Assembly: GCF_003018115.1 (NCBI RefSeq)
Contig: NZ_CP027457.1
Length of the DNA stretch: 64,000 nt
Reading direction: 5' to 3' (one strand)
DNA from: Escherichia coli
GTDB lineage: Bacteria; Pseudomonadota; Gammaproteobacteria; Enterobacterales; Enterobacteriaceae
Positions 3,496 to 55,687 of this stretch are shown here, one piece after another. The number at the start of each line of letters is the position of its first letter. The stretch's first letter is position 1. Below the pieces are notes generated by a model. That model was given only the letters and a program-made list of their open reading frames with translations, did no database searches and was not told the DNA's origin. A program made the position numbers and the translations under genes.

Positions 3496-4100
3496 TCACT
3501 GATGCCGTTTACGCAGGTTCTCAATCACCGTCGTTAAATCCAGATCCTGATCCTGCAACAACACCAGCAGGTGATACATCAAGTCAGATGCCTCGTTGGT
3601 CAGCTCAAAGCGGTCATGTACCGTTGCTGCCAGCGCAGTTTCCACCCCTTCTTCCCCCACTTTCTGCGCAATGCGCTTGGTGCCGCTGGCATACAGTTTG
3701 GCGGTATAGGAGGTTTCCGGGTCGGCAGATTTGCGCTCGGCGAGCAGTTGTTCCAGTTGATACAGGAACAGCCACTGGTGAGCGGTGTTGCCGAAGCAGC
3801 TGCTGGTGCCTTTGTGGCAGGTCGGGCCGATGGGATTCGCCAGCACTAATAAAGTGTCGTTGTCGCAGTCCGGCGCAATACTCACTACGTTGAGGAAATT
3901 GCCCGACGTTTCGCCTTTGGTCCACAGTCGCTGTTTAGTGCGCGAGAAGAAGGTGACTTTGCCGCTTTCGATGGTTTTGTCTAAGGCTTCCGGGTTCATA
4001 TAGCCCAGCATTAACACTTCGCCGGATACAGCGTGTTGCACAATCACCGGCATCAGTCCGTCGGTTTTTTCCCAGTCCAGTTCGCGACGTTGTTGTTCTG

Positions 4101-28222: not shown

Positions 28223-29710
28223 ATGTGGTTTCACTTTCTGCAATTAAGGTCGGCTTTGAATATCTCCTCTGCTTTACGCCAGGTTGTTCACGGCACTCGC
28301 TGGCACGCTAAACGCAAGAGCTACAAAGTGTTGTTCTGGCGCGAGATAACCCCGCTTGCTGTTCCTATCTTCATGGAGAATGCCTGTGTCCTGTTGATGG
28401 GGGTTCTGAGCACTTTTCTGGTCAGCTGGCTGGGAAAAGATGCGATGGCCGGCGTGGGATTGGCGGACAGCTTCAATATGGTCATTATGGCTTTTTTTGC
28501 TGCTATCGATCTTGGTACTACTGTCGTTGTGGCATTTAGTCTCGGTAAGCGGGATCGACGACGAGCGAGGGTGGCGACGCGGCAGTCATTGGTGATCATG
28601 ACGTTGTTTGCCGTACTGTTGGCAACGCTTATTCATCATTTTGGCGAACAAATTATTGATTTCGTCGCGGGTGATGCCACGACAGAAGTTAAAGCACTGG
28701 CGTTGACTTATCTGGAGCTGACGGTACTCAGTTATCCAGCAGCTGCCATCACTCTTATTGGTAGCGGGGCACTTCGTGGTGCAGGGAATACGAAAATACC
28801 GCTATTGATTAACGGTAGCCTGAATATTCTTAATATTATTATTAGCGGCATATTGATTTACGGCCTTTTCTCCTGGCCGGGACTGGGATTTGTCGGGGCA
28901 GGGCTGGGTTTAACCATTTCTCGTTATATTGGCGCAGTTGCAATTTTGTGGGTGCTGGCGATTGGTTTTAATCCTGCGCTAAGGATTTCGTTAAAGAGCT
29001 ATTTTAAACCGCTGAATTTTAGCATTATCTGGGAAGTCATGGGGATTGGTATTCCCGCGAGTGTCGAATCAGTGTTATTTACCAGTGGTCGGTTATTAAC
29101 CCAAATGTTCGTTGCCGGGATGGGGACCAGTGTTATTGCCGGAAATTTTATCGCGTTTTCAATTGCGGCTCTTATCAACTTACCCGGAAGTGCGCTCGGC
29201 TCTGCTTCTACGATCATTACAGGCCGAAGGTTGGGGGTAGGGCAGATAGCGCAAGCAGAGATTCAGTTGCGGCATGTGTTCTGGCTGTCCACTCTTGGAT
29301 TAACGGCCATCGCCTGGCTAACGGCTCCCTTTGCCGGGCTTATGGCATCGTTTTACACCCAGGATCCACAAGTTAAACATGTCGTTGTGATTCTGATTTG
29401 GCTAAATGCTTTATTTATGCCTATTTGGTCCGCCTCATGGGTGCTACCCGCTGGATTTAAAGGTGCTCGTGATGCCCGTTACGCCATGTGGGTTTCGATG
29501 TTGAGCATGTGGGGTTGTCGGGTTGTCGTCGGTTATGTGCTGGGAATCATGCTTGGCTGGGGTGTGGTTGGTGTCTGGATGGGAATGTTTGCCGACTGGG
29601 CTGTGCGGGCCGTGCTGTTTTACTGGCGAATGGTTACTGGACGTTGGCTATGGAAATACCCTCGATCCGAGCCGCAAAAGTGTGAAAAAAAGCCAGTTGT
29701 GTCGGAATAA
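28223..29710 (+). CDS. yeeO: MATE-family multidrug/flavin efflux transporter
   Basis: ORF 28070..29710; start placed at MWFHFLQL... (ATG 28223, 495 aa) because the longer frame begins only 8 nt from the divergent tRNA. Confidence 0.82.
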   Translation: MWFHFLQLRSALNISSALRQVVHGTRWHAKRKSYKVLFWREITPLAVPIFMENACVLLMGVLSTFLVSWLGKDAMAGVGLADSFNMVIMAFFAAIDLGTTVVVAFSLGKRDRRRARVATRQSLVIMTLFAVLLATLIHHFGEQIIDFVAGDATTEVKALALTYLELTVLSYPAAAITLIGSGALRGAGNTKIPLLINGSLNILNIIISGILIYGLFSWPGLGFVGAGLGLTISRYIGAVAILWVLAIGFNPALRISLKSYFKPLNFSIIWEVMGIGIPASVESVLFTSGRLLTQMFVAGMGTSVIAGNFIAFSIAALINLPGSALGSASTIITGRRLGVGQIAQAEIQLRHVFWLSTLGLTAIAWLTAPFAGLMASFYTQDPQVKHVVVILIWLNALFMPIWSASWVLPAGFKGARDARYAMWVSMLSMWGCRVVVGYVLGIMLGWGVVGVWMGMFADWAVRAVLFYWRMVTGRWLWKYPRSEPQKCEKKPVVSE

Positions 29711-29810
29711 ACGACAAAATGCAGATTATTTCAGCAAACGATTTCAAATTTAAAAAACAGGCTTTGACATTGTGGGTGGGCATCGCTAATATTCGCCTCG
29801 TTCTCACGAT

Positions 29811-29886
29811 TCCTCTGTAGTTCAGTCGGTAGAACGGCGGACTGTTAATCCGTATGTCACTGGTTCGAGTCCAGTCAGAGGAGCCA
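29811..29886 (+). tRNA. asnW: tRNA-Asn (GUU)
   Basis: 76-nt canonical tRNA-Asn on the plus strand, inverted relative to the other three copies. Confidence 0.95.
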
Positions 29887-29948
29887 AATTTTAGTTTTGA
29901 GACATCTCTATGAGTCTCAAGGCAGTTAAAAAATAAAAATTATTTTTA

Positions 29949-29984
29949 CCCGGCCACTTTGTAAAAAAGTGGCCGGGTTTTTTG
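29949..29984 (+). terminator. Intrinsic terminator downstream of plus-strand tRNA-Asn
   Basis: Hairpin cccggccactttgtaaaaaagtggccggg followed by a T-run. Confidence 0.75.
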
Positions 29985-30335
29985 ATTTCTGTGTTTCGTG
30001 CGCTTAATCGAGTCTCACGCTTCAGTGAGCAAATTGCCCCTCCCCAACAGACATCACGATTCACAAGGTCAAAAATTCTGTTCCATGAAGTACCGTACAA
30101 AGATAAAGAGAAAAATGCCTTATGCGGGATGTCGCTGTCGCGTCTTTATCGGGAAACTATACGTAATTACCACTTGCCTTCTGTAATCAGAAAAAGAAGA
30201 CCTGGAATTTTAATAAATATTATTTCTCTGGGGGGATTTTTATAATCAATATGACGAGTTGAAAATTATATTCTTTATAAGAATTATATGAGGTTAAAGA
30301 AATCTGCCGTAAAGACAGATTTCTTTAAAAGATAA

Positions 30336-31052
30336 TTAGAGATTTGCGACGTTATGATAAACTTTTTGTACATCGTCGTCATCTTCAAGGGCATCAACAA
30401 GCCCTTCAAAGATTTCTAAATCTTCTGGGGAAAGCTCAACTTCAGATTGAGCAATCATTTCTAATTCTGTTGTTGAGAACTCAGTGATTCCAGCTGCTTT
30501 TAGAGCCGCGATTCCTTTATGAAGGTCAGTAGGTTCGGTATAAATAACAATGTTACCTTCTTCTTCAGTCACATCACGAACATCAACTTCAGCTTCAAGT
30601 AAAATTTCAAAAATATGGTCAGGGTCTGATCCTTTAAATACAATCACACCAGTATTGTCAAACATATAGCTGACAGAACCTGCCGCTCCGATATTGCCGC
30701 CTTTTTTATTGAAAATTGTGCGAACGTTAGCAATCGTACGGTTAACATTTGAAGTCAATGTCTCGGCGATAATCATTGAGCCATTAGGACCAAAGCCTTC
30801 ATAACGGCCCTGCACGAATGTTTCATCTCCGCCGCCTTTGGCTTTATCAATTGCTTTATCAATAACGTGCTTTGGAACTTGTGCCTGCTTTGCACGTTCA
30901 ATAACGAATTTTAAAGATGTGTTTAATTCTGGATCGGGTTCACCTTGTTTAGCGGCAGCATAGATTTCTACACCGAATTTTGCATAAATTTTAGACGTTG
31001 CACCGTCTTTAGCCGTTTTTTTAGCAACAATATTGGCCCATTTACGTCCCAC
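30336..31052 (-). CDS. yeeN: YebC/PmpR-family transcriptional regulator
   Basis: 238-aa [34 protein letters not shown]... Confidence 0.9.
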
Positions 31053-31394
31053 TGGAATGATCTCCTCGAAAATTTATTTACATTACTGGTAAATCGTTAA
31101 CATGTGTTAATTCGGCATATTATATCATAACAGGAAAAATCTCGTCTATTAGAAATAAAAATATTCTAAAGCCATAATCTTATATTTAATTTTATAAAAA
31201 CTTATATTGTTGGCGGGATTTTTTATAATTGTGTTTTGAAAGCATACTTGCTTTTAATATGTGGAAATCATTAAGACGATAATAAAACTCGTATCCGCCC
31301 AAGGAAGCAAACAGCCCGCGTTTATTGCGGGCTATTTGCCAGATGTCTTACTTAATCCTTCACATCTATTTTTGATAAGAAGGTTCAGAACTTA

Positions 31395-32849
31395 TTATCG
31401 GAACGGCGGCTCATTAAAGGTTCGTAATTTACGTGAATGCAGTCGGTCGCCTTCTGCGCGCAGCAAATCGATCGCCCGAATGCCAATTTGTAGGTGTTCG
31501 GAAATAGCGCCTTCATAAAAACGGTTAGCCTGACCGGGAAGTTTAATCTCGCCATGCAACGGTTTATCTGAAACACACAGTAGTGTCCCGTATGGCACGC
31601 GGAAACGATATCCTTGCGCGGCAATGGTTGCACTTTCCATATCAATTGCTACGGCCCGGCTTAAGTTAAAACGAAGTGCAGAAGCTGAGTAACGTAATTC
31701 CCAGTTCCTGTCATCTGTGGTTACCACAGTACCAGTACGTAGCCGCTGTTTGACTTCCTCACCGGGCCTGCCGCTCACCAGCTTGGTGGCGTCATAAAGC
31801 GCACGTTGCACTTCAGCAATGCTCGGAATAGGAATATCGGGCGGCAGAACCGCATCAAGAACGTGGTCATCGCGTAAATAAGCGTGTGCAAGTACATAAT
31901 CGCCAATGGCCTGACTTTCACGTAATCCGCCACAGTGACCAATCATCAACCAGACATCCGGGCGTAGCACTGCCAGATGATCGCAGATGGTTTTAGCATT
32001 TGACGGTCCCACGCCAATATTCACCAGAGTAATACCCTGACCATCGGCGGTAATTAAATGCCATGCTGGCATCTGGTGTTTTTTCCATGCAAGGTCGGAA
32101 ATGGCTTCTTCTGGCGCTTCGGTTTCGGCGGTGATCCAGTTCCCGCCAGCACAAGAAAGGGCAATGTAGGGACTATCAGGATCGAGGATCTGGCTGCATC
32201 CCCAACGAACGAATTCATCCACATAACGTGTATAGTTGGTAAACAAGACGAACGGCTGAAAATGTTCAACTGGCGTACCGGTATAATGGCGCAACCGTGC
32301 GAGGGAAAAATCGACGCGGCGCGCATCAAAATGCGATAGCGGGGAGAATTCAGTTGGATGATAAATGCCGTCTGCAGTTTCATCGCCAATTTGCGCCAGT
32401 TCTGTTGTCGGGAAATAGCGAGTTAACCCAGCGCTCATTGAGCGATCAAGTGTCAATTCAGAGCCATCGATGACATAAGGATAAGGGATTTCATGCTGCG
32501 AGGGTTGCACCGAGATATGCGCACCATAATCCTGATACAGCAACGTAAGTTGTTCATTGAGATACGAACGAAAGAGAGTAGGGCGAGTAATCGTGGTGGT
32601 GTAGCTGCCTGCGTGAGTAAAACGACCAAATGCGCGCGTTTTAGGGGGATTGGTTGTGCTACCATCCCAGGTTACGGTCAGTGATGGATAGACAAAAAGA
32701 CCTTGTTTGCGGGCGTTTTCATCAGGTAATTCGCCACTTGTAATATATTTGCCAATGGCGTTGCGTAAAGCGACTACAGATTGCTCATACAGCGCGTCGA
32801 GTTTATCCAGTGCCTGAGCTGGGGTCAGACCGGAGCCCTTATTATTCAT
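31395..32849 (-). CDS. amn: AMP nucleosidase
   Basis: ORF 31395..33005; start at MNNKGSGLTPAQALDKLDALYEQSV... (ATG 32849, 484 aa). Confidence 0.92.
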   Translation of the reverse strand: MNNKGSGLTPAQALDKLDALYEQSVVALRNAIGKYITSGELPDENARKQGLFVYPSLTVTWDGSTTNPPKTRAFGRFTHAGSYTTTITRPTLFRSYLNEQLTLLYQDYGAHISVQPSQHEIPYPYVIDGSELTLDRSMSAGLTRYFPTTELAQIGDETADGIYHPTEFSPLSHFDARRVDFSLARLRHYTGTPVEHFQPFVLFTNYTRYVDEFVRWGCSQILDPDSPYIALSCAGGNWITAETEAPEEAISDLAWKKHQMPAWHLITADGQGITLVNIGVGPSNAKTICDHLAVLRPDVWLMIGHCGGLRESQAIGDYVLAHAYLRDDHVLDAVLPPDIPIPSIAEVQRALYDATKLVSGRPGEEVKQRLRTGTVVTTDDRNWELRYSASALRFNLSRAVAIDMESATIAAQGYRFRVPYGTLLCVSDKPLHGEIKLPGQANRFYEGAISEHLQIGIRAIDLLRAEGDRLHSRKLRTFNEPPFR

Positions 32850-45258: not shown

Positions 45259-45348
45259 GGAGAGATGCCGGAGCGGCTGAACGGACCGGTCTCGAAAACC
45301 GGAGTAGGGGCAACTCTACCGGGGGTTCAAATCCCCCTCTCTCCGCCA
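45259..45348 (+). tRNA. serU: tRNA-Ser (CGA)
   Basis: 90-nt GGAGAGATGCCGGAGCGGCTGAACGGACCGGTCTCGAAAACCGG...CTCTCCGCCA with long variable arm, anticodon CGA. Confidence 0.93.
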
Positions 45349-45917
45349 CTTTATCAATGACTTATCTCCCGACTTCCCGCCTTGCTTTTCCTAAACAGAA
45401 CAATCGTAGAATATTCTTGAAGGGTTAGATCGTCACTGTTTTCTGTTCGATACTGTGACATTCAGCACTTGATTCGCTATGGATCTGACAGGAAGCTTTC
45501 GAGCGAAAATGTGCAGTTATTCAGTCGTTTTCTTATCGCTCACCATTCTTCTTTTAGACATTCATCCTATGAAACTGCCGCAAAGTTGGTGGTGGGAACT
45601 GAAGTTGCGTAGAGAAGGGGTCAATAATTGAGTCAAAAAAGGAACGCGGCCGTCAGATTAAAGCCGCGGGACAAAGTCCATAATTTCCAAGAGTTGTTGA
45701 ATTTCCCAGCTTTTTTGAAAGCCTTTGTATCATACTAACAAGTAAAAAAGGTTTAAATACCAAAATTAACCTGTATTTTTGATAAGTCTTACCATTGTAC
45801 GATTTACACAGTTTCTGCTCCTCCTTGTTGATAGTGGAAAGGGTGCATTGTGCACTTGCGTAAACATTTATGACGCGTTGATGTCCATGGTTCACATTTC
45901 CTTGTCAGGGGATCGAC

Positions 45918-46448
45918 TTATTTGCGGCGAGGCATCATTCGTAACAGAGTATTATCTTTCTGAATGTAGTGATGAAAGAGTGCTGCGCCAGCGTGAGCTG
46001 CGATTAAAAAGTAGCCTATATTTGCCCAGGTTTCGTGAATATTTTTTATCAGTGCTTTAATTTCGCTGTTTGGGGTAACAAAGGGAGACACATTGAAACC
46101 AAGGAAACTCCACGATTTTCCACTGTAAGCCATTAAAGCAATCCCCAGCAGAGGAAGCGCAAGGAAGGTTATATAAAGCATGATGTGCATTAGCGAAGCC
46201 GCTTTCATTTGCCAGGCAGGTGGCGGTGGCACAATAGAAGGATCACTATAACGGTGTTTTATAATCAGGCGTGAAAACATTAACACCCAAACGAATATAC
46301 CCGCATTGTAATGTGTTTCTCGCATCAGCAGATAAGTACTACTACCTTTAGGAAACCAGCCACGGAGTTCCATCGCGGCATAGGTTATTGCAACGAAAAG
46401 CAGCGTTATCCAATGTAAATAAATTTGAGTTTTTGAGAATCGGTTCAT
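45918..46448 (-). CDS. yodB: Cytochrome b561-family membrane protein
   Basis: ORF 45918..46478; start at MNRFSKTQIYLHWITLL... (176 aa), 4 TM with conserved His. Confidence 0.88.
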   Translation of the reverse strand: MNRFSKTQIYLHWITLLFVAITYAAMELRGWFPKGSSTYLLMRETHYNAGIFVWVLMFSRLIIKHRYSDPSIVPPPPAWQMKAASLMHIMLYITFLALPLLGIALMAYSGKSWSFLGFNVSPFVTPNSEIKALIKNIHETWANIGYFLIAAHAGAALFHHYIQKDNTLLRMMPRRK

Positions 46449-46790
46449 TTTTGTAGCTCCTGTAATTTTCACAGTCAAGCTATCCCACGAACCTTAAAAA
46501 TTCCTTATACAGATGTGGTTTTAAGAATTTGTTATTTAAAAAATTGATAGTGCACATTGTAACCAGCCAATATAAGCAATGTCGTGAGCACAGGTATCTT
46601 TCTCTGTTGGCCGTATTGTGTATGGAATCCGTTATTGGTTAACTCAATGCGGGTTAGCTTATTAATATACAGACACGTCATAGTGATGAGCGTGTCTGTA
46701 GCTAGCTTGCGTTCAGTGGCGTTTGTGGATGGACCAGTGGCAGTTATGATGACTTACTAAAGCGGCATCGAGGCGTTATCATGAGAATAC

Positions 46791-47441
46791 TCAATGAGAC
46801 ATCATTTCCTCGACCACTTCTTCGCTACTCAACTGATATGGATAATACGTTGGCCAGTTTTCCATTTCATTTAATAAAGATTGCTGTGAATCATTACCCA
46901 TAAAAATGTGAAAATGAGATGATTTTCGTGGTGCAATTATATGATCGCTAAATTGTATATATTTAGGGGCTTTGCTTTCAGGATCTTTACATTCGAATAA
47001 GTAACGAACGCCTTTCTTGCCTGATTTATAGGTGAGTATTTTGTATCCATCGTAATCATATTTACAGGATGTTGTTTCATTATTTCTATGGAATTCAACA
47101 ATGCCGTCCTCAATGCCAATCATCTCGATATCTGTTGCATAACCTTTGTGATAATAATCTTTAATTTCAGCAAATGTTTTAGTTTTATCTGCATCCGCTT
47201 TCTTCTGAAAGACGGGGTCAAGTTTGCCACTTTGCAGTAAAGGATAAACGGATTGCCAGACTCCATCCCAGTCACTGAGCGTTCGGTTTTGTACATTGGC
47301 ATCATCAAAAACACCATTAGCAGCTTTTTGTTCGACCTCTGTTAAGGGGTTGCCGTGTGAGTGATGACCATGCGAAAAGGCAGGAGCGCTAACAATAAAG
47401 ACACCTAAAGCAACAGCCAGTTTATGAAGACGAATCGCCAA
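46791..47441 (-). CDS. zinT: Periplasmic zinc/cadmium-binding protein
   Basis: 216-aa ORF with signal peptide and His-rich N-terminus (HGHHSHG). Confidence 0.92.
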
Positions 47442-47476
47442 AACAGTTTCCTCCAGAGTTAATGTATATGATGTGT

Positions 47477-47500
47477 AATGTTATATTGTAACATATAACA
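47477..47500. promoter_or_regulatory. Probable Zur box in the zinT promoter
   Basis: AT-rich palindrome tgttatat-N6-atataaca directly upstream of zinT. Confidence 0.65.
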
Positions 47501-47625
47501 AAATGCAACAACTCTTAGGAAACGAGAGCATGGCTTTCTCAGTTCTACTTATCTATCTTATTGAAATAAAATAAATTATTTTTGTGATTTGAGGTTGATG
47601 ACAAACGAAACATAACCTGATGTGA

Positions 47626-47666
47626 GCTGCGTAGGCCGGATAGGGCGCTCGCGCCACATCCGGCAG
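47626..47666. repeat. REP (repetitive extragenic palindromic) element
   Basis: gcgtaggccggatagggcgctcgcgccacatccggca, the typical REP consensus, between zinT and msrQ. Confidence 0.8.
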
Positions 47667-47697
47667 GGATAACGCGTACTTTGTCGGCAATATGAAG

Positions 47698-48333
47698 TTA
47701 TACAGATAATTTGTTGTGAACCTGCTTGCGTAACCGGTTAAAAAGGGAACGCAACTTCTTATACCGTAAGGCTAAAAGCAGTACAGCCAGCCCAGCGTAG
47801 ATGAGCGGCTGCGGTGAAATAATCTTCACTGACCACAGATAATGTATTGGGGACAGGATCGCGACAAGATAGACGAAATTATGCAACTGTTGCCAGTGCT
47901 TGCCGAGTTTTCGCTGCATCGCCTGGGTTGAAGTAAACGCTAAAGCAAGCAAAATAACCCAGCTGATAATTCCTAACGTTAAATAAGGCCGGGTAATTAA
48001 CTCCTTGCCTAATAACGCCAGATTATTCACGCCCAGCTCCAGCAATGCGTAACTGGTTAAATGCAGTGTCGCCCAGGCAAAGCACCATAAGCCTAACAGG
48101 CGGCGAGTGCGTATCAATAACGGCTGTTTTGCGTAGCGTGCCAGAGGTGTGATTAACAAGGTCGCCAGCAAAAATTTCAGTGCAGTGCGACCAGTAAAAT
48201 GCTGAATATCTTTCACCGGATCGGCACCCAGTCCACCGTGATTGATTGCCCAGACCAGCCAGAGAAACGGCAACAATCCGGCAAGATGCAGGCAAACTTT
48301 CAGCCATGTCACCTGTTTTGCTGTCAGACGCAT
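47698..48333 (-). CDS. msrQ: Methionine sulfoxide reductase heme-binding subunit
   Basis: 211-aa polytopic membrane [26 protein letters not shown]... Confidence 0.92.
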
Positions 48334-49344
<1,011 letters not shown>

Positions 49345-49446
49345 TCACACTTTTTTGTCGTTAGCCAGCAAGAGCCGTTTACTGCTAATCTGTCAGGGAG
49401 TGTCCTCCCTAACAGTAGCAGAGATCTGCTTTTACATATTTATGCA

Positions 49447-49860
49447 TTAACTGCCACGATAGGTTGAATACCCATATTGGCTAAGTAATAAAGGCACATG
49501 ATAATGCTCGTTCACTTTATTAATATGAAATTCAACGGGGATCTCAGGGAAGAAACTTTCAAGATTTTGTTTCTTGAAATAGTCCCCGGTTTTAAATACG
49601 ACACGGTAATCGCCCGTAGTTGCAGTTTGCTCGGGCCACAGTGCCTTAATTCGTCCATCCTTATCTGTTTTGGCGGTATTAAGTTGTAACCAGCCGTTAT
49701 CCGCTTTCTTTTCAAGAGTGACTGTCACGTCGGCAGCGGGTTTTCCTGTTTGCTGGTTCAAAATGTGCACGCTAAGAATGTTTTGTTGTGCAGCATAGAC
49801 CAAAGAAGGTAATGAAAATGCAGCCGTTACTACGGAGAGTACTAAATAACGCTTTAACAT
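49447..49860 (-). CDS. hiuH: 5-hydroxyisourate hydrolase (transthyretin-like periplasmic protein)
   Basis: 137-aa ORF with signal peptide and C-terminal YRGS motif. Confidence 0.9.
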
Positions 49861-49992
49861 GTTTATATCCTTGTCATGTGAATGAGTTTTGAGGATAGCG
49901 AAAAAGCGTCCAGGGTAACCTTACAGCAGCATTACAATTTTGTAATGAACCAGGCTGTTTCTATAACATATGATTTATGGCATATTATTTTC

Positions 49993-50664
49993 ATGAAGAT
50001 TTTACTTATTGAAGATAATCAAAGGACCCAGGAGTGGGTAACGCAGGGGCTTTCCGAAGCGGGTTATGTCATCGATGCCGTTTCTGATGGCAGAGATGGG
50101 CTTTATCTTGCGCTGAAGGATGATTATGCATTGATCATTCTGGATATTATGCTTCCGGGTATGGATGGCTGGCAGATCTTACAAACGTTAAGAACGGCAA
50201 AGCAAACCCCTGTTATTTGCCTTACTGCAAGGGATTCTGTCGATGACAGAGTCAGAGGGCTGGACAGTGGAGCAAATGATTATCTGGTAAAACCTTTTTC
50301 ATTTTCTGAGTTGCTGGCAAGGGTTCGGGCACAATTAAGGCAACATCACGCTTTGAATTCAACATTAGAAATCAGCGGCTTAAGAATGGACTCTGTTAGT
50401 CAAAGTGTGAGCAGGGACAATATCAGTATTACACTGACGCGCAAGGAGTTTCAGTTACTTTGGCTACTGGCCTCCAGAGCTGGCGAAATTATACCCAGAA
50501 CGGTTATTGCGAGTGAAATTTGGGGAATCAACTTTGATAGTGATACCAATACGGTGGACGTCGCCATTCGCAGGCTCCGCGCAAAAGTTGATGATCCTTT
50601 TCCTGAAAAGCTAATCGCCACAATCCGGGGGATGGGCTATTCATTCGTAGCGGTAAAAAAATAA
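49993..50664 (+). CDS. hprR: Two-component response regulator (OmpR family)
   Basis: ORF 49882..50664; start at MKILLIEDNQRTQEW... (ATG 49993, 223 aa). Confidence 0.9.
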   Translation: MKILLIEDNQRTQEWVTQGLSEAGYVIDAVSDGRDGLYLALKDDYALIILDIMLPGMDGWQILQTLRTAKQTPVICLTARDSVDDRVRGLDSGANDYLVKPFSFSELLARVRAQLRQHHALNSTLEISGLRMDSVSQSVSRDNISITLTRKEFQLLWLLASRAGEIIPRTVIASEIWGINFDSDTNTVDVAIRRLRAKVDDPFPEKLIATIRGMGYSFVAVKK

Positions 50665-52022
50665 TGAAAAGATTATCTATAACCGTCCGTTTAACCTTGC
50701 TTTTTATATTGCTGCTGTCTGTTGCTGGCGCTGGAATTGTATGGACTCTCTATAATGGCCTGGCAAATGAGTTGAAATGGCGCGATGATACAACACTCAT
50801 TAACCGGACAGCACAGATCAAGCAGTTGTTAATTGATGGGGTAAATCCAGATACGTTACCTGTGTACTTTAACCGGATGATGGATGTTAGTCAGGATATC
50901 TTGATCATTCATGGTGATAGCATCAATAAAATTGTTAACCGGACAAATGTCAGTGATGGCATGTTAAATAACATACCTGCTAGTGAGACAATCAGCGCAG
51001 CTGGCATTTACAGAAGCATTATTAATGATACAGAGATAGATGCTTTACGAATTAATATTGATGAAGTTTCGCCATCATTAACGGTTACTGTGGCTAAATT
51101 GGCTTCAGCCAGACATAACATGCTTGAACAGTATAAAATCAATAGCATTATAATTTGCATTGTCGCCATTATACTGTGCTCAGTATTAAGTCCGCTGTTA
51201 ATCCGGACGGGGTTACGAGAGATCAAAAAGTTGAGTGGTGTAACGGAAGCGCTGAATTATAACGATAGCCGAGAGCCTGTTGAGGTTAGCGCATTACCGA
51301 GAGAACTAAAACCTCTTGGGCAGGCGTTGAATAAAATGCATCATGCTTTAGTCAAAGATTTTGAGCGTCTAAGTCAGTTTGCTGACGATCTCGCTCATGA
51401 ACTTAGAACGCCAATTAATGCATTACTGGGTCAGAATCAGGTTACGCTCAGTCAAACCAGAAGTATCGCTGAATATCAAAAAACAATTGCCGGAAACATT
51501 GAAGAGCTGGAAAATATTTCGCGGTTAACAGAGAACATACTGTTTCTTGCCAGGGCAGATAAAAACAATGTTTTGGTGAAACTGGACTCGCTTTCTCTCA
51601 ATAAGGAAGTCGAAAATTTGTTGGACTATCTTGAATACCTTTCAGACGAGAAAGAGATTTGCTTTAAGGTCGAGTGCAATCAGCAAATCTTTGCGGATAA
51701 AATTTTACTACAACGAATGTTATCGAATCTTATTGTTAACGCTATTCGATATTCGCCAGAAAAATCGCGTATTCATATAACCAGTTTTCTTGATACCAAC
51801 AGCTATCTTAATATTGATATCGCCAGCCCTGGAACGAAAATTAATGAGCCTGAAAAACTCTTCCGTAGATTTTGGCGGGGAGATAATTCGCGTCATTCCG
51901 TAGGTCAGGGACTAGGCCTTTCTTTAGTCAAAGCGATTGCCGAATTACATGGGGGAAGTGCTACGTATCACTATCTCAATAAGCATAATGTGTTCCGGAT
52001 TACGTTGCCGCAAAGAAATTAA
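50664..52022 (+). CDS. hprS: Two-component sensor histidine kinase
   Basis: 452-aa ORF with two TM segments, H-box (LAHELRTP) and ATPase G-boxes; start overlaps the hprR stop. Confidence 0.9.
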   Translation: MKRLSITVRLTLLFILLLSVAGAGIVWTLYNGLANELKWRDDTTLINRTAQIKQLLIDGVNPDTLPVYFNRMMDVSQDILIIHGDSINKIVNRTNVSDGMLNNIPASETISAAGIYRSIINDTEIDALRINIDEVSPSLTVTVAKLASARHNMLEQYKINSIIICIVAIILCSVLSPLLIRTGLREIKKLSGVTEALNYNDSREPVEVSALPRELKPLGQALNKMHHALVKDFERLSQFADDLAHELRTPINALLGQNQVTLSQTRSIAEYQKTIAGNIEELENISRLTENILFLARADKNNVLVKLDSLSLNKEVENLLDYLEYLSDEKEICFKVECNQQIFADKILLQRMLSNLIVNAIRYSPEKSRIHITSFLDTNSYLNIDIASPGTKINEPEKLFRRFWRGDNSRHSVGQGLGLSLVKAIAELHGGSATYHYLNKHNVFRITLPQRN

Positions 52023-52118
52023 CATAGGCTTCAGTACGCCCGTTAAAAAACGCAGCCACGTCGTGAGTACTAACGCGGCTGCGATTGATTATGCGCTTAC
52101 ATTCAAACGTAACAGGGA

Positions 52119-52970
52119 TTAACCCGCGTAAGCTGCCAGCATTTCCTGCGCCGCCAGTTTACCCAACGCATTCGCTGCAAAAGGACTGTCGCCGGTGAAA
52201 AGTTTACGGTCCTTATGTACTCGCCCGGTGATGTCGTCATTAATGATGTTCATGCCCATTTTCTTCAGCTCTTCGCCGAAGTACCAGGTGAGATGACCCG
52301 GCATATAGCCAATCTCTGGCGTTTGTTTGTCTGCGGCGTCTGGGAATGCGCAAATGGAATAACCATTCAGTGGGTTATCGCCGTGGCGAAGCGCCAGAAA
52401 AGCCGCCGGGCCGTGGCAAAGGGAGATAACAAAACGGTCATTTTTGATTGCCCACTGTAAAGCGGCAGCTACGTCCTGGCTTTCAGGTAAACCAATAAGT
52501 GCGCCATGACCACCAGGAACAAAGATTGCTGCATATTCGCTATCAGCGTTGAGGCTGGCGACAACATCCGCGAGTTTCTTCGGATTGCGGAACAACGATT
52601 TATGCTGCTCAAAGAATGGCATTACTTTTTCATCTTTGTGCGGCATAGCCCAGTATTCAAACTTGGTCATCAGACCGGAAATGGTCGCCACTTCGAATTC
52701 GAAACCTGCAGCATGGAGATGATACAACGGCAGCAACGTTTCAATCGGATGGTTACCGGTCGAGAACAGCTTTCCGTTATCGGTCGGCAAATAACGTTCG
52801 TCCGCGGCGATCACCAGAATTTTATGTTTACCGCGATACGGTTTTGGATAGTCCACGCCATCAAGATCAGAGACAGGACTGGTATATTGGCTAAGCGAAT
52901 ATTCTGAAGGGAAGAATGCATTATCTTCAGCAATATCGACCTGCGGATTTTTACTTGTTTGAACAGTCAT
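52119..52970 (-). CDS. hchA: Hsp31 glyoxalase III / protein deglycase (DJ-1/PfpI family)
   Basis: 283-aa ORF MTVQTSKNPQVDIAEDNAFFPSEYSLSQYTSP... Confidence 0.93.
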   Translation of the reverse strand: MTVQTSKNPQVDIAEDNAFFPSEYSLSQYTSPVSDLDGVDYPKPYRGKHKILVIAADERYLPTDNGKLFSTGNHPIETLLPLYHLHAAGFEFEVATISGLMTKFEYWAMPHKDEKVMPFFEQHKSLFRNPKKLADVVASLNADSEYAAIFVPGGHGALIGLPESQDVAAALQWAIKNDRFVISLCHGPAAFLALRHGDNPLNGYSICAFPDAADKQTPEIGYMPGHLTWYFGEELKKMGMNIINDDITGRVHKDRKLFTGDSPFAANALGKLAAQEMLAAYAG

Positions 52971-53483
52971 AGTGTATTCCTTATTGTTGCTTAGTTAGGG
53001 TAGTCACTATATTTGCGACTGAGCTGGTCGCTATTTTTAACCAGGCTGGAAAATTGAGTCAATATATCGAAAGCGGTAGTCGGCGGGTGTAAGTATGTAA
53101 TGATGATGCTGCACTGGTGTTGAATATTATTCACGCCAAATTTTCCTTATTGAGCAACGTCGTCGCAAGTGGCCTCAATGATTTTAGACCATTATCAAAG
53201 GTACGGGGCGGCGGGGAGAGATTTAGTGCTGTGGAATATTGTGGTGCTGATGAATATTTATATCCCGGATTGGTAGAGAAAAAGCTTTTTCCATGCACTA
53301 TTTTTGCAAATATTTCTATATGGGAGGCGTGTTTGTTGCGGATTAATTCATAAAGAAATGTATTTGGAGTGTTGGCTGGAAGAGTAGCTGGTAGAAGATA
53401 TTGTGCCAGGAGGGGCAGGGTAAGGGGCTGTATCGATATGCATTGACAATTGCGTGTGCCGGAGATGGAGATGAAATGCCAAT

Positions 53484-53519
53484 AAAAAAGCCTGAGTTCG
53501 ATGAGGGACGAACTCAGGC
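53484..53519 (-). terminator. Intrinsic terminator downstream of yedS
   Basis: Hairpin gcctgagttcg...cgaactcaggc preceded on the plus strand by an A-run (T-run on the minus strand). Confidence 0.65.
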
Positions 53520-53562
53520 TAGTGTTCAGTTTTACAGTAACACGCCGCGGCGCGTTGACTGA

Positions 53563-54756
53563 TTAGAACTGGTAGACTAAGCCCACAGCAACGATATCAT
53601 CGGTAGCGATGCCGTTTGCTTCGTAGAAGTCATCGTCGTTGTCCAGCAGGTTGATTTTGTAATCAACATAGGTGGACATGTTTTTGTTGAAGTAGTAGGT
53701 CGCACCAATATCAACGTATTTAACCAGATCTTTATTGGTGTAACGTGGGTCGCCGTTGCCGTCATGAGCCCAACCGCCTAAATCCTTACCTTTAGATTGC
53801 AGGTAAGCGATGGACGGGCGCAGGCCAAAGTCGAACTGATACTGAGCAACAACTTCAAAGTTTTGGGTTTTGTTAGCGATGGCTGATCTTGATTCACCAT
53901 TATCAAACTCGCCACCACCATATGGGGTCATATTGCGAGTTTCAGCGTACATAGCTGCTAAATACACATTATTAGCATCATATTTTGCACCAACAGTCCA
54001 TGCTTCAGCGGTTTCACCACCAGCATTTCTGTTGCTATGGTTACGATCATTTAAACCAACTCCAACCTGACGATCTGAACGATCAGAGTTTGAATATGCA
54101 GCACCCAGACTTAAACCGAAGTCGAAGTCATAGGAAGTGGACATACCGAAACCATCACCATTTTCTTGAGCAATGTCCCGACCCTTACCCTTACCAGAAC
54201 CTTCCTGACCGAATGGACCACCGTTTTCGTTATTACTCTGATATTGCAGAGCAAAGTTCAGGCCATCGACCTGACCAAAGAAGCCATTGTTACGGTAGGT
54301 TGCAACACCATTAGCACGACCGTTCATGAAGTTGTCAGCGCCAGCATAGGTATCGCCACCAAATTCTGGCAGCATATCGGTCCATGCTTCTACGTCATAT
54401 ACGACACCGTAGTTACGACCATAGTCGAAAGTACCATTCTGACCAAAGCCTAAACCTGCAAATGCCAGACGCGTTGCAGTATTACCTTTGTCGCTTTCAG
54501 TACCGTTTGCGCCAATGTTAAATTCCCACTGACCGTAACCAGTGAATTGATCAGCGATCTGAGTTTCACCTTTGAAACCGATACGGGCATATGACATGTC
54601 GCCATCGCTGCCAGAATCATCAGAGAAGTAGTGCAGACCCACTACTTTTCCGTACAAATCCAGTTTATTACCATCTTTATTATAGACTTCAGCCGCATTT
54701 GCTGCGCCAGCAACTAATAACGCCGGGACCAGCATTGCCAGAACTTTTCTTTTCAT
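53563..54756 (-). CDS. yedS: OmpC/OmpF-family general porin, apparently intact
   Basis: ORF 53563..54825; start at [37 protein letters not shown]... (397 aa), C-terminal aromatic residue (YQF). Confidence 0.88.
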
Positions 54757-55066
54757 TATGTATTCCCTTGTGATTATAATCTTCATGAATATATCAATAA
54801 GTGCCGTTATCCAAAAAAAGCACATTTGGATACTATTCTATGAAGTTCATTTTATTTTAAGGATTGCATGTAACAAATGTATTTAAAAGATTTCAAAATG
54901 TTTCTAATCTATTTAATATAATTCAGGATTATGAATTCTGAATATAAACATTCATGAAGATTATAAATGCATATCAATATGTTATGAGTTGAGCGGAAAC
55001 ATAGGGGGTATCAATGATTGTTGCGCCAAACGGCTGGTGTGATCAGGCGCACATTAATGAAGGCAT

Positions 55067-55160
55067 AAAAAAAAGCCGGCATCATGCCGGCCCAAAAAAT
55101 ATAAACAAGACGATAAAAGGCTAATAACGGTAGCATCATGACACAGAATAATAAAAAGGT
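55067..55160 (-). ncRNA. Candidate small RNA in the yedS-yedR spacer (possibly RseX); extent approximate
   Basis: Minus-strand intrinsic terminator (gccggcatgatgccggc followed by a U-run) at 55067-55091 with no ORF upstream. The 5' end is not defined. Confidence 0.35.
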
Positions 55161-55384
55161 ATAATTGTAATCAGTGCTAATATATTGATTAAATGAATTA
55201 ATAAAGCCGATATCAAAGATAAATAAAATCGCTCAAAACGATTTTTCCTGTATTCACTGCCGTTGCGCAAAATTTATCTATTTGTTCAAAAAATGATTGA
55301 GTCTTGACTGGCTCATCCAATGTGGAAAAATGTGACTTTTATCACATAATAGTACTAAGTCTGAATTTTCCGGGTTATCTCAAA

Positions 55385-55687
55385 ATGGAATACGGTTCGA
55401 CAAAGATGGAAGAGAGACTCTCTCGCAGCCCTGGCGGCAAACTGGCTTTGTGGGCTTTCTATACATGGTGTGGCTATTTCGTCTGGGCAATGGCGCGTTA
55501 CATCTGGGTGATGAGCCGGATCCCCGATGCCCCCGTGTCGGGATTTGAAAGCGATTTAGGCTCTACCGCGGGAAAGTGGTTAGGGGCACTGGTCGGATTT
55601 TTATTTATGGCTCTGGTCGGGGCATTGTTAGGCAGCATTGCCTGGTACACCCGACCTCGTCCCGCACGTAGCAGACGCTATGAATAA
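55385..55687 (+). CDS. yedR: Small inner-membrane protein
   Basis: ORF 55304..55687; start placed at MEYGSTKMEERLSRSPGGKLALWAF...; two predicted TM helices. Confidence 0.7.
   Translation: MEYGSTKMEERLSRSPGGKLALWAFYTWCGYFVWAMARYIWVMSRIPDAPVSGFESDLGSTAGKWLGALVGFLFMALVGALLGSIAWYTRPRPARSRRYE

Follow-up and report, generated by a model that had tools for sequence, protein, structure and literature searches.

Gene order and features of the yeeN locus

The analyzed window, comprising 64,000 nucleotides of the Escherichia coli contig NZ_CP027457.1, carries the genes cbl, asnU, yeeO, asnW, yeeN, amn and shiA, which corresponds to the E. coli core gene order. Between asnW and amn, a low-GC segment, referred to here as the islet, was delimited. 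Within this islet, yeeN is the sole conserved open reading frame (ORF), and the tRNA gene asnW marks its edge while lying outside the islet itself. Coordinates of the genes, regulatory elements and spacers are compiled in Table 1. A total of 5399 of 5426 complete E. coli genomes contain the entire ~1.8-kb stretch around positions 29887–31394, and at the yeeN locus the window shares 97.9% identity with K-12. Both flanks of yeeN were free of annotated features in the two RefSeq records inspected, one of which represents K-12.

Table 1. Genes, regulatory elements and spacers at the yeeN locus (positions refer to the window)
Feature	Position	Strand	Basis
yeeO	ends 29710	+	ORF list/annotation
asnW, tRNA-Asn(GUU)	29811–29886	+	ARAGORN; Rfam tRNA 72.6 bits
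Whole low-GC islet, ~1.5 kb	29892–31391		blastn of the window against loci L091 and L090; GC statistics
asnW intrinsic terminator (13-bp GC-rich stem, then T run)	29948–29978	+	Terminator scan; -25.2 kcal/mol, z = -6.1
E. coli-specific non-coding spacer, ~43% G+C	29979–30169		Single-copy and unannotated; 5404/5426 E. coli genomes
Decayed 5' fragment of a GyrI-like gene, translating as IKIPGLLFLITEGKW and a stop	30170–30214	-	DNA homology to enterobacterial cassette L008
AT-rich 3' spacer of the cassette, indel hotspot at 30232–30240	30215–30293		Common to other enterobacterial cassettes; variable within E. coli
yeeN terminator hairpin, 13–15 bp stem	30294–30328	-	Inverted repeat I8; -17.9 kcal/mol, z = -8.1
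yeeN, 238 aa, 717 bp, GTG start	30336–31052	-	ORF and annotation
yeeN 5'UTR (~60 nt), Shine-Dalgarno AGGAG at 31062–31066	31053–31118	-	Alignment to other cassettes
Predicted sigma-70 promoter TAGACG-18-nt-TATAAT, extended -10 TG (TGATATAAT)	31119–31148	-	Promoter scan
AT-rich upstream part of the cassette, common to other Enterobacteriaceae	31149–31213		Local alignments reach 31164–31213
E. coli-specific AT-rich spacer	31214–31306		16% of columns variable among 7 E. coli strains
amn terminator hairpin	31307–31339	-	Inverted repeat I13; -26.0 kcal/mol, z = -5.0
amn	ends 31395	-	ORF list/annotation

In the first-pass annotation, the flanks had been described as devoid of credible ORFs. Three ORFs of 62–87 aa are present at 29891–30245, and the spacer 29979–30169 is conserved across E. 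coli, which would be compatible with a small RNA or a gene for a small protein in the flanks that annotation has missed. However, all three ORFs are broken by frameshifting indels of 1–5 nt in other E. coli strains, so that the earlier description holds. Moreover, 5–20% of the flank columns are variable among the 7 E. coli strains compared, versus 3.1% in the yeeN coding sequence. Screening of the locus against Rfam returned the tRNA alone above threshold and, in the flanks, sub-threshold chance matches on terminator hairpins. A hidden gene in the flanks is therefore considered very unlikely.

The yeeN promoter was invariant among the same 7 strains. Based on a simple hexamer scan of 2 kb, nine promoter-like sites were counted versus 5.3 ± 2.3 in shuffled sequences, representing no strong excess. 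The spacer 29979–30169 yielded no phage match.

Base composition and insertion between amn and asnW

Windowed G+C calculation corroborated the strong AT-richness reported earlier for both sides of yeeN. The segment 29887–31394 has a G+C content of 36.3%, compared with 48.5% for the window, and is the lowest-G+C stretch of 1508 bp therein (0.02% of same-size windows are as low). The downstream flank (449 bp) shows 35.2% G+C, a value reached by 1.8% of same-size windows, and the upstream flank (342 bp) shows 30.4%, reached by 0.14%. For the downstream flank, the description as strongly AT-rich applies to the yeeN-proximal 235 bp (30101–30335; 31.5% G+C), whereas the tRNA-proximal 214 bp (29887–30100), which include the GC-rich terminator, are only mildly AT-rich with 39.3%. 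The upstream AT-rich core (31053–31300) shows 27.0% G+C. A/T tracts of at least four bases, likewise noted before, occur at 2.5–3.6 per 100 bp in the flanks versus 1.19 in the window, corresponding to a 2–3 fold enrichment. Furthermore, TpA steps in the two cores amount to 10.6 and 12.9 per 100 bp versus 5.1 in the window (99.4th and 99.9th percentiles).

The first-pass annotation overlooked the atypical composition of yeeN itself. This gene has a G+C content of 39.9% and a third-position G+C content (GC3) of 27.6%, compared with GC3 values of 45–52% for the neighboring genes cbl, yeeO, amn and shiA. Since yeeN is as atypical as its flanks, the anomaly represents one continuous islet and not two separate flanks.

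The boundaries of the islet were deduced from comparison with an Enterobacter-labelled locus (L091) featuring the order shiA-amn-tRNA-Asn-yeeO. In this locus, 119 bp with 50% G+C extend from the amn stop codon to the tRNA gene, and 111 bp of the spacer between the two genes are without homology to E. coli. By blastn, homology between the window and this locus ends at 31392 and resumes at 29891; hence, the segment 29887–31394 corresponds almost exactly to the extra DNA of E. coli, and the islet starts no more than 5 nt beyond the 3' end of asnW. None of the other amn loci examined (Salmonella, Kluyvera and one further species) carries yeeN beside amn. The inner ~1.05 kb of the islet (~30170–31213) are common to yeeN cassettes of other enterobacteria, while the outer parts, 29892–30169 and 31214–31391, gave no match in ~90 fetched loci; the spacer 31214–31306 likewise had no homolog in any locus fetched. 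Part of the AT-richness of these outer ~280 bp and ~180 bp could be ordinary intergenic composition.

Extending this consideration to the entire locus, the flanks might represent ordinary native intergenic DNA that is AT-rich through its promoters and terminators and contains nothing foreign. They do contain a promoter and three strong terminator hairpins, and the G+C content of the tRNA-proximal 214 bp was judged not unusual for an E. coli spacer. However, the AT-rich cores with 27–31% G+C are within the lowest 0.1–1% of same-size windows, the empty-site equivalent is the short spacer of balanced composition described above, and the promoter, 5'UTR and terminator DNA of yeeN aligns to Lactococcus (see below). 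A purely native origin thus appears highly improbable. Instead, yeeN and both flanks very probably constitute one horizontally acquired islet of 1.5 kb, located between amn and the asnW 3' end.

Lactococcus relatives and other enterobacterial copies of the yeeN cassette

YeeN belongs to the YebC_II/TACO1 family, and all of its homologs carry the domains PF01709 and PF20772. The protein was recently recognized as a translation factor relieving ribosome stalling at polyproline stretches (PMC12234827). In the same study, E. coli b1983 was assayed as YebC_II, a second, weaker YebC paralog in E. coli, whereas S. pyogenes possesses one YebC-family gene only (PMC12234827). To the Streptococcaceae YebC_II/YeeN proteins (S. 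pyogenes YebC; B. subtilis YeeI/YebC2), E. coli YeeN is very closely related, with 76–93% identity to the Streptococcus and Lactococcus representatives. A scan of one genome per species and a subsequent search of a large protein database provided the same picture: identities reach 93% for L. taiwanensis, 89–90% for L. kimchii, 84–85% for the L. garvieae group and 76–79% for Streptococcus, including 78–79% for the S. pyogenes protein cluster. At the DNA level, identity to L. taiwanensis amounts to 81% across coding sequence and terminator, the blastn match extending to 30297. In a neighbor-joining tree, the YeeN proteins of enterobacteria all group into a single clade located within Lactococcus, with L. 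taiwanensis as sister and L. kimchii next.

In those loci of Lactococcus and Streptococcus that were examined, yeeN follows tmcAL, and the surroundings are of uniform G+C content (34–41% in the Streptococcaceae loci profiled), whereas in E. coli the gene is an additional, weaker paralog whose surroundings are foreign to it. Moreover, GC3 of yeeN is nearly the same in E. coli (27.6%) and Lactococcus (26.8%). Based on the identities, the nesting in the tree, the tmcAL context with uniform G+C and the matching GC3, transfer is deduced to have proceeded from Lactococcus to the Enterobacteriaceae.

Similarity to the putative donor extends into the regulatory DNA. In L. kimchii, positions -79 to -1 relative to yeeN contain TGATATAAT, a hairpin and a ribosome-binding site, and correspond at almost every base to the enterobacterial cassettes (score 82 versus a null maximum of 25). 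The E. coli copy can be aligned with this L. kimchii DNA over positions -37 to -1 (score 39 versus a null maximum of 32), and its promoter -10 element is shared by L. kimchii and L. taiwanensis. The loci of both species thus feature the same -10 element, 5'UTR and terminator as E. coli yeeN, and the terminator hairpin was kept in all enterobacterial cassettes. The E. coli copy lacks the 5'UTR hairpin that other cassettes conserve, and regulation of yeeN may therefore differ between hosts.

Downstream of yeeN, the next gene in L. kimchii and L. taiwanensis encodes a GyrI-like protein (PF06445), a stub of which was kept in several enterobacterial cassettes. Compared with the L. kimchii protein, this stub gave E = 4.6e-11 in cassette L008 and 6e-5 in L009 and L010. 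The E. coli stub comprises ~45 nt, with DNA homology to L008 down to position 30174 (score 96, null maximum 33); searched alone, the E. coli fragment gave no significant match at the protein level. On sequence grounds, a close relative of L. taiwanensis and L. kimchii within Lactococcus appears to be the donor of the islet core, which brought its own promoter and terminator.

Further copies of the cassette were found in other enterobacteria as a unit of ~1.1 kb, reaching roughly from -270 to +100 around yeeN and located in a sharp GC trough. Its contexts are unrelated to each other and include at least five sites in Citrobacter as well as sites in Superficieibacter, Kluyvera, a Raoultella metagenome-assembled genome and Salmonella, a position downstream of icd in a non-coli Escherichia (locus L003) and a contig with DndB and HNH genes (L084). 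The label of L003 as E. coli was rejected: its icd gene is 90–94% identical in most of 5,426 E. coli genomes and 95–99% in a minority, and among complete E. coli genomes, coverage of its cassette region does not exceed ~74%, with identities of 80–95%. Carriage by plasmids or phages was also considered and discarded. Full-length plasmid matches comprised seven records of 0.39–4.9 Mb, regarded as chromosomal sequences deposited under a plasmid label, and a single 145-kb record; the remaining plasmid matches are distant YebC genes. Neither a recombinase, nor an att repeat, nor a true plasmid copy of the cassette was found. This distribution is most simply read as passive transport on integrative islands with later deletion.

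As an improbable and more speculative alternative, the ~1.1-kb unit consisting of AT-rich leader, yeeN, terminator and gene stub might itself be a mobile cassette devoid of its own recombinase that was re-inserted at about a dozen or more unrelated chromosomal sites. Recombination might then act on its AT-rich, H-NS-coated ends, either illegitimately or through an enzyme supplied in trans by the host or a phage. The conserved 5'UTR hairpin might be the site through which YeeN, an RNA-binding protein, regulates its own expression.

Previously, the flanks had been placed next to a tRNA gene. The adjacency to asnW is real, but neither an integrase nor a repeat of the tRNA 3' end accompanies it. 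As in tRNA-linked islands, such as those at E. coli asn tRNA genes, the islet is located directly 3' of tRNA-Asn and is atypical in composition. Unlike these islands, it measures only 1.5 kb, and no integrase, integrase fragment or mobility gene was detected in it; a search for the tRNA-Asn 3' end that allowed up to 3 mismatches matched nothing in the window beyond the four tRNA-Asn genes.

A tentative explanation, considered possible and yet rather doubtful, is that the islet represents the decayed remnant of a larger island that integrated site-specifically at the asnW 3' end and from which the integrase and the bulk of the cargo subsequently disappeared. Consistent with this are the start of the islet within 5 nt of asnW and the position of the cassette in L003 just downstream of icd, a prophage attachment site. 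The absence of an integrase, of integrase fragments and of any tRNA-Asn 3'-end repeat in the window beyond the four tRNA genes argues against it, as do most Citrobacter, Kluyvera and Superficieibacter sites, which are without a tRNA gene within 4 kb. The cassette ends are ragged between species, as progressive deletion would give, and in L084 the cassette adjoins the DndB and HNH genes. In Salmonella, yeeN borders a variable region beside a tRNA-Leu gene (PMC5699537), which also fits a decayed island.

The question of a decayed island concerns the arrival route only and is compatible with the explanation favored below.

Two further candidates were rejected. A direct repeat, D1 (30206–30241 and 31188–31223; 36 nt, 75% identical), was assessed as att site or target duplication. 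None of 300 shuffles of the whole flanks and 4 of 300 shuffles of the AT-rich cores produced a repeat as good. Nevertheless, D1 was dismissed because both copies are located in cassette DNA common to other species and the downstream copy is an E. coli indel hotspot. Insertion of the pks island in the downstream flank was dismissed as well, since a published account places pks beyond cbl, beside erfK, and not between asnW and yeeN.

H-NS, RNA polymerase and the fate of the foreign gene

H-NS acts on AT-rich, horizontally acquired DNA, as formulated in the xenogeneic silencing model of Navarre and Lucchini. With this model, the islet shares its low G+C content relative to the host, its foreign origin and literature-reported occupancy by H-NS. 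Typical cases of xenogeneic silencing are multi-gene islands, whereas the present one is limited to one housekeeping-type gene, 717 bp long, which has become fixed in practically every E. coli.

The flanks had originally been proposed as candidate regions for binding of H-NS or Fis or as curved DNA. For the upstream flank, H-NS binding is supported by published data, all of which refer to K-12, not to this strain, and to the upstream spacer only. The amn/yeeN spacer is 1 of 78 'promoter islands' (entry 2054637_373; Panyukov & Ozoline 2013, PMC3661553 Table 1) and H-NS binding is indicated there on the basis of two ChIP-chip data sets (Kahramanoglou and Oshima). Promoter islands are understood in that catalogue as stretches of at least 300 bp with unusually dense, overlapping promoter-like sites according to the program PlatProm. 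It is located inside IslandViewer and GIST islands, and the adjoining gene was called foreign by three methods (PMC3661553). Furthermore, a sigma-70 (RpoD) RNA polymerase binding peak and an H-NS SELEX site were reported for the same spacer (Shimada 2014, PMC3946193 Table 3). The yeeN promoter was named TAGACG-18-TATAAT from RpoD SELEX (PMC3946193), and this hexamer pair is the site detected by our own promoter scan at 31148..31119.

The spacer thus shares with the promoter islands of Panyukov & Ozoline, among which it is itself listed, its AT-richness, its binding of RNA polymerase and H-NS and its association with a foreign gene. The promoter-island paper covers the upstream spacer alone and names no donor, whereas the present analysis assigns yeeN and its downstream flank to the same foreign fragment. 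The H-NS nucleation motif of Lang, TCGATAAATT, was absent from the flanks at up to one mismatch; seven matches were counted in the window, with 6.0 expected by chance.

Regarding curvature, A/T tracts are enriched as described above, but mean predicted curvature of the flanks is modest, with 4.4–4.8 versus 3.8 degrees per turn in the window. These values were calculated with a wedge model, and the code separates a phased A-tract control (13.2 degrees per turn) from random sequence (8.4) only modestly. One peak above the 99th percentile lies in the upstream flank (31195–31198), and the strongest peak of the wedge model is inside the yeeN 5' end. Together with the 2–3 fold enriched A/T tracts, the upstream peak might suggest that the flanks are mainly intrinsically curved DNA or Fis sites with an architectural or UP-element-like function and not H-NS targets. 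However, flank curvature is barely above the window mean, the strongest peaks are inside yeeN, and a literature search turned up no Fis report for the locus. This interpretation is considered improbable, and the predicted curvature of the flanks is unremarkable.

Based on the data compiled above, the following explanation is favored. The core (~30170–31213) probably represents a self-contained Lactococcus expression cassette consisting, in this order, of a Gram-positive-style promoter with extended -10 element, the 5'UTR with Shine-Dalgarno sequence, yeeN, the terminator and a ~45-nt piece of the gene that comes next in Lactococcus. The asnW and amn terminators are located outside this core, in the remaining ~280 bp and ~180 bp of the islet. 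The islet is probably AT-rich because the base composition of the donor was retained, and TpA-rich DNA with 27–31% G+C is a preferred substrate for H-NS in E. coli. RNA polymerase may bind the strong yeeN promoter unaided, while H-NS filaments may nucleate and polymerize on the AT-rich, TpA-rich flanks and thereby limit productive transcription. As a consequence of this limitation, the foreign translation-factor paralog YeeN would be kept at a low or conditional level. Foreign origin of the islet together with binding of H-NS and RNA polymerase is probable; composition, insertion, donor lineage and sequence signals emerged from the present analysis, and the binding of both proteins comes from published work. 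Silencing of yeeN by H-NS is an inference considered rather likely, and the downstream flank may participate in it.

An H-NS-bound spacer beside a predicted foreign gene is already published for this locus, and the islet is ordinary xenogeneic AT-rich DNA in this respect. Since the spacer is already catalogued, the present results are of little consequence for the question of H-NS binding. Useful refinements are the identification of Lactococcus as donor, the recognition that regulatory DNA was transferred with the gene, and the exact limits of the insertion. In E. coli, yeeN appears as a near-unaltered Lactococcus gene under a Gram-positive promoter, and its low or conditional expression and weak phenotypes should be read accordingly. 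The occurrence of the same cassette at many chromosomal sites of other enterics poses a small mobility puzzle. Moreover, the exact boundaries of the islet provide a clean system to study the fixation of one foreign gene of housekeeping type that would still be subject to xenogeneic silencing.

Genomic settings of the yeeN cassette in Enterobacteriaceae

In other Enterobacteriaceae (comparison loci L003-L017, L083 and L084), the same low-GC yeeN cassette, approximately 1.1 kb in size, occupies about a dozen unrelated positions on the chromosome; its ends are ragged, and the adjoining genes include icd, ychF, arsC, btuE, tam and metI. No tRNA gene was detected within 4 kb of the cassette in L003-L017, and the immediate neighbours that were inspected included no mobility gene. 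Coordinates are compiled in the table.

Locations of features in the window and in the comparison loci
Feature	Locus	Position
yeeN in the cassette loci	most of L003-L017, L083, L084	4001-4717
Permuted three-piece arrangement, Citrobacter	L008	3578-5904
Permuted three-piece arrangement, Citrobacter	L015	3244-4910
'Empty' amn-asnW spacer	L091	4959-5074
5'UTR hairpin	L004-L016 and L083	~3945-3975
5'UTR hairpin	L089	2925-2960
5'UTR hairpin	window	31080-31110
Poly-G/T indel hotspot, 3' flank of yeeN	window	30232-30240
Peak of predicted curvature, 5' end of yeeN	window	30979-31024
tRNA-Ser(CGA) gene	window	45259-45348
Low-GC stretches past tRNA-Ser(CGA)	window	45621-47640, 49801-51820, 54661-55420
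Probable further island	window	45259-55420

Two Citrobacter species (L008 and L015) carry the same three pieces in arrangements that are circular permutations of each other. In one locus the yeeN cassette is followed by a common 76-bp piece and then by a gene for a btuE-like glutathione peroxidase; in the other the btuE-like gene comes first, followed by the cassette and the 76-bp piece. Moreover, the 'empty' amn-asnW spacer of L091, an Enterobacter-labelled genome, carries a REP-like GC-rich palindrome as well as one single bidirectional terminator abutting the tRNA gene.

Locus L003 originates from a record labelled E. coli SCPM-O-B-8794 (NZ_JAATUR010000009.1). Most E. coli have an icd gene only 90-94% identical to the L003 copy, with a minority at 95-99%. 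The yeeN cassette of L003 shows 88% DNA identity, with no closer or fuller match in any complete E. coli genome. The record thus seems to come from a different species of Escherichia.

Variation and DNA structure in the E. coli window

Among 5426 complete E. coli genomes, only 15 records were at least 99% identical to window positions 29700-31500, nearly all remaining ones reaching 95-99%; the window therefore derives from a sparsely sampled E. coli lineage. The best match was strain PS10-3 (99.4%). In the 3' flank of yeeN, a poly-G/T indel hotspot differs by up to 5 nt between E. coli strains, and the window and PS10-3 have a 5-nt deletion there in common.

Predicted DNA curvature of the region peaks at ~12.7 degrees per turn (>99th percentile); this maximum falls inside the yeeN coding sequence, no more than 75 bp from its start, and not in the flanks. 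Furthermore, a weak SELEX peak inside yeeN is listed in a study of minor sigma factors (PMC5493296). Elsewhere in the window, the stretches past the tRNA-Ser(CGA) gene have 33-37% G+C, the lowest-GC 250-bp spot lies near 54750, and this segment is probably another island.

A hairpin in the 5'UTR of yeeN

Directly past the predicted transcription start, the yeeN cassettes possess a 5'UTR hairpin with the consensus GCAGGTTATTAACCTGC, which is degraded in the E. coli window. Compensatory base changes were observed in this hairpin among the enterobacterial cassettes, and L. kimchii has the hairpin as well. It could represent an mRNA-stabilising or autoregulatory element.
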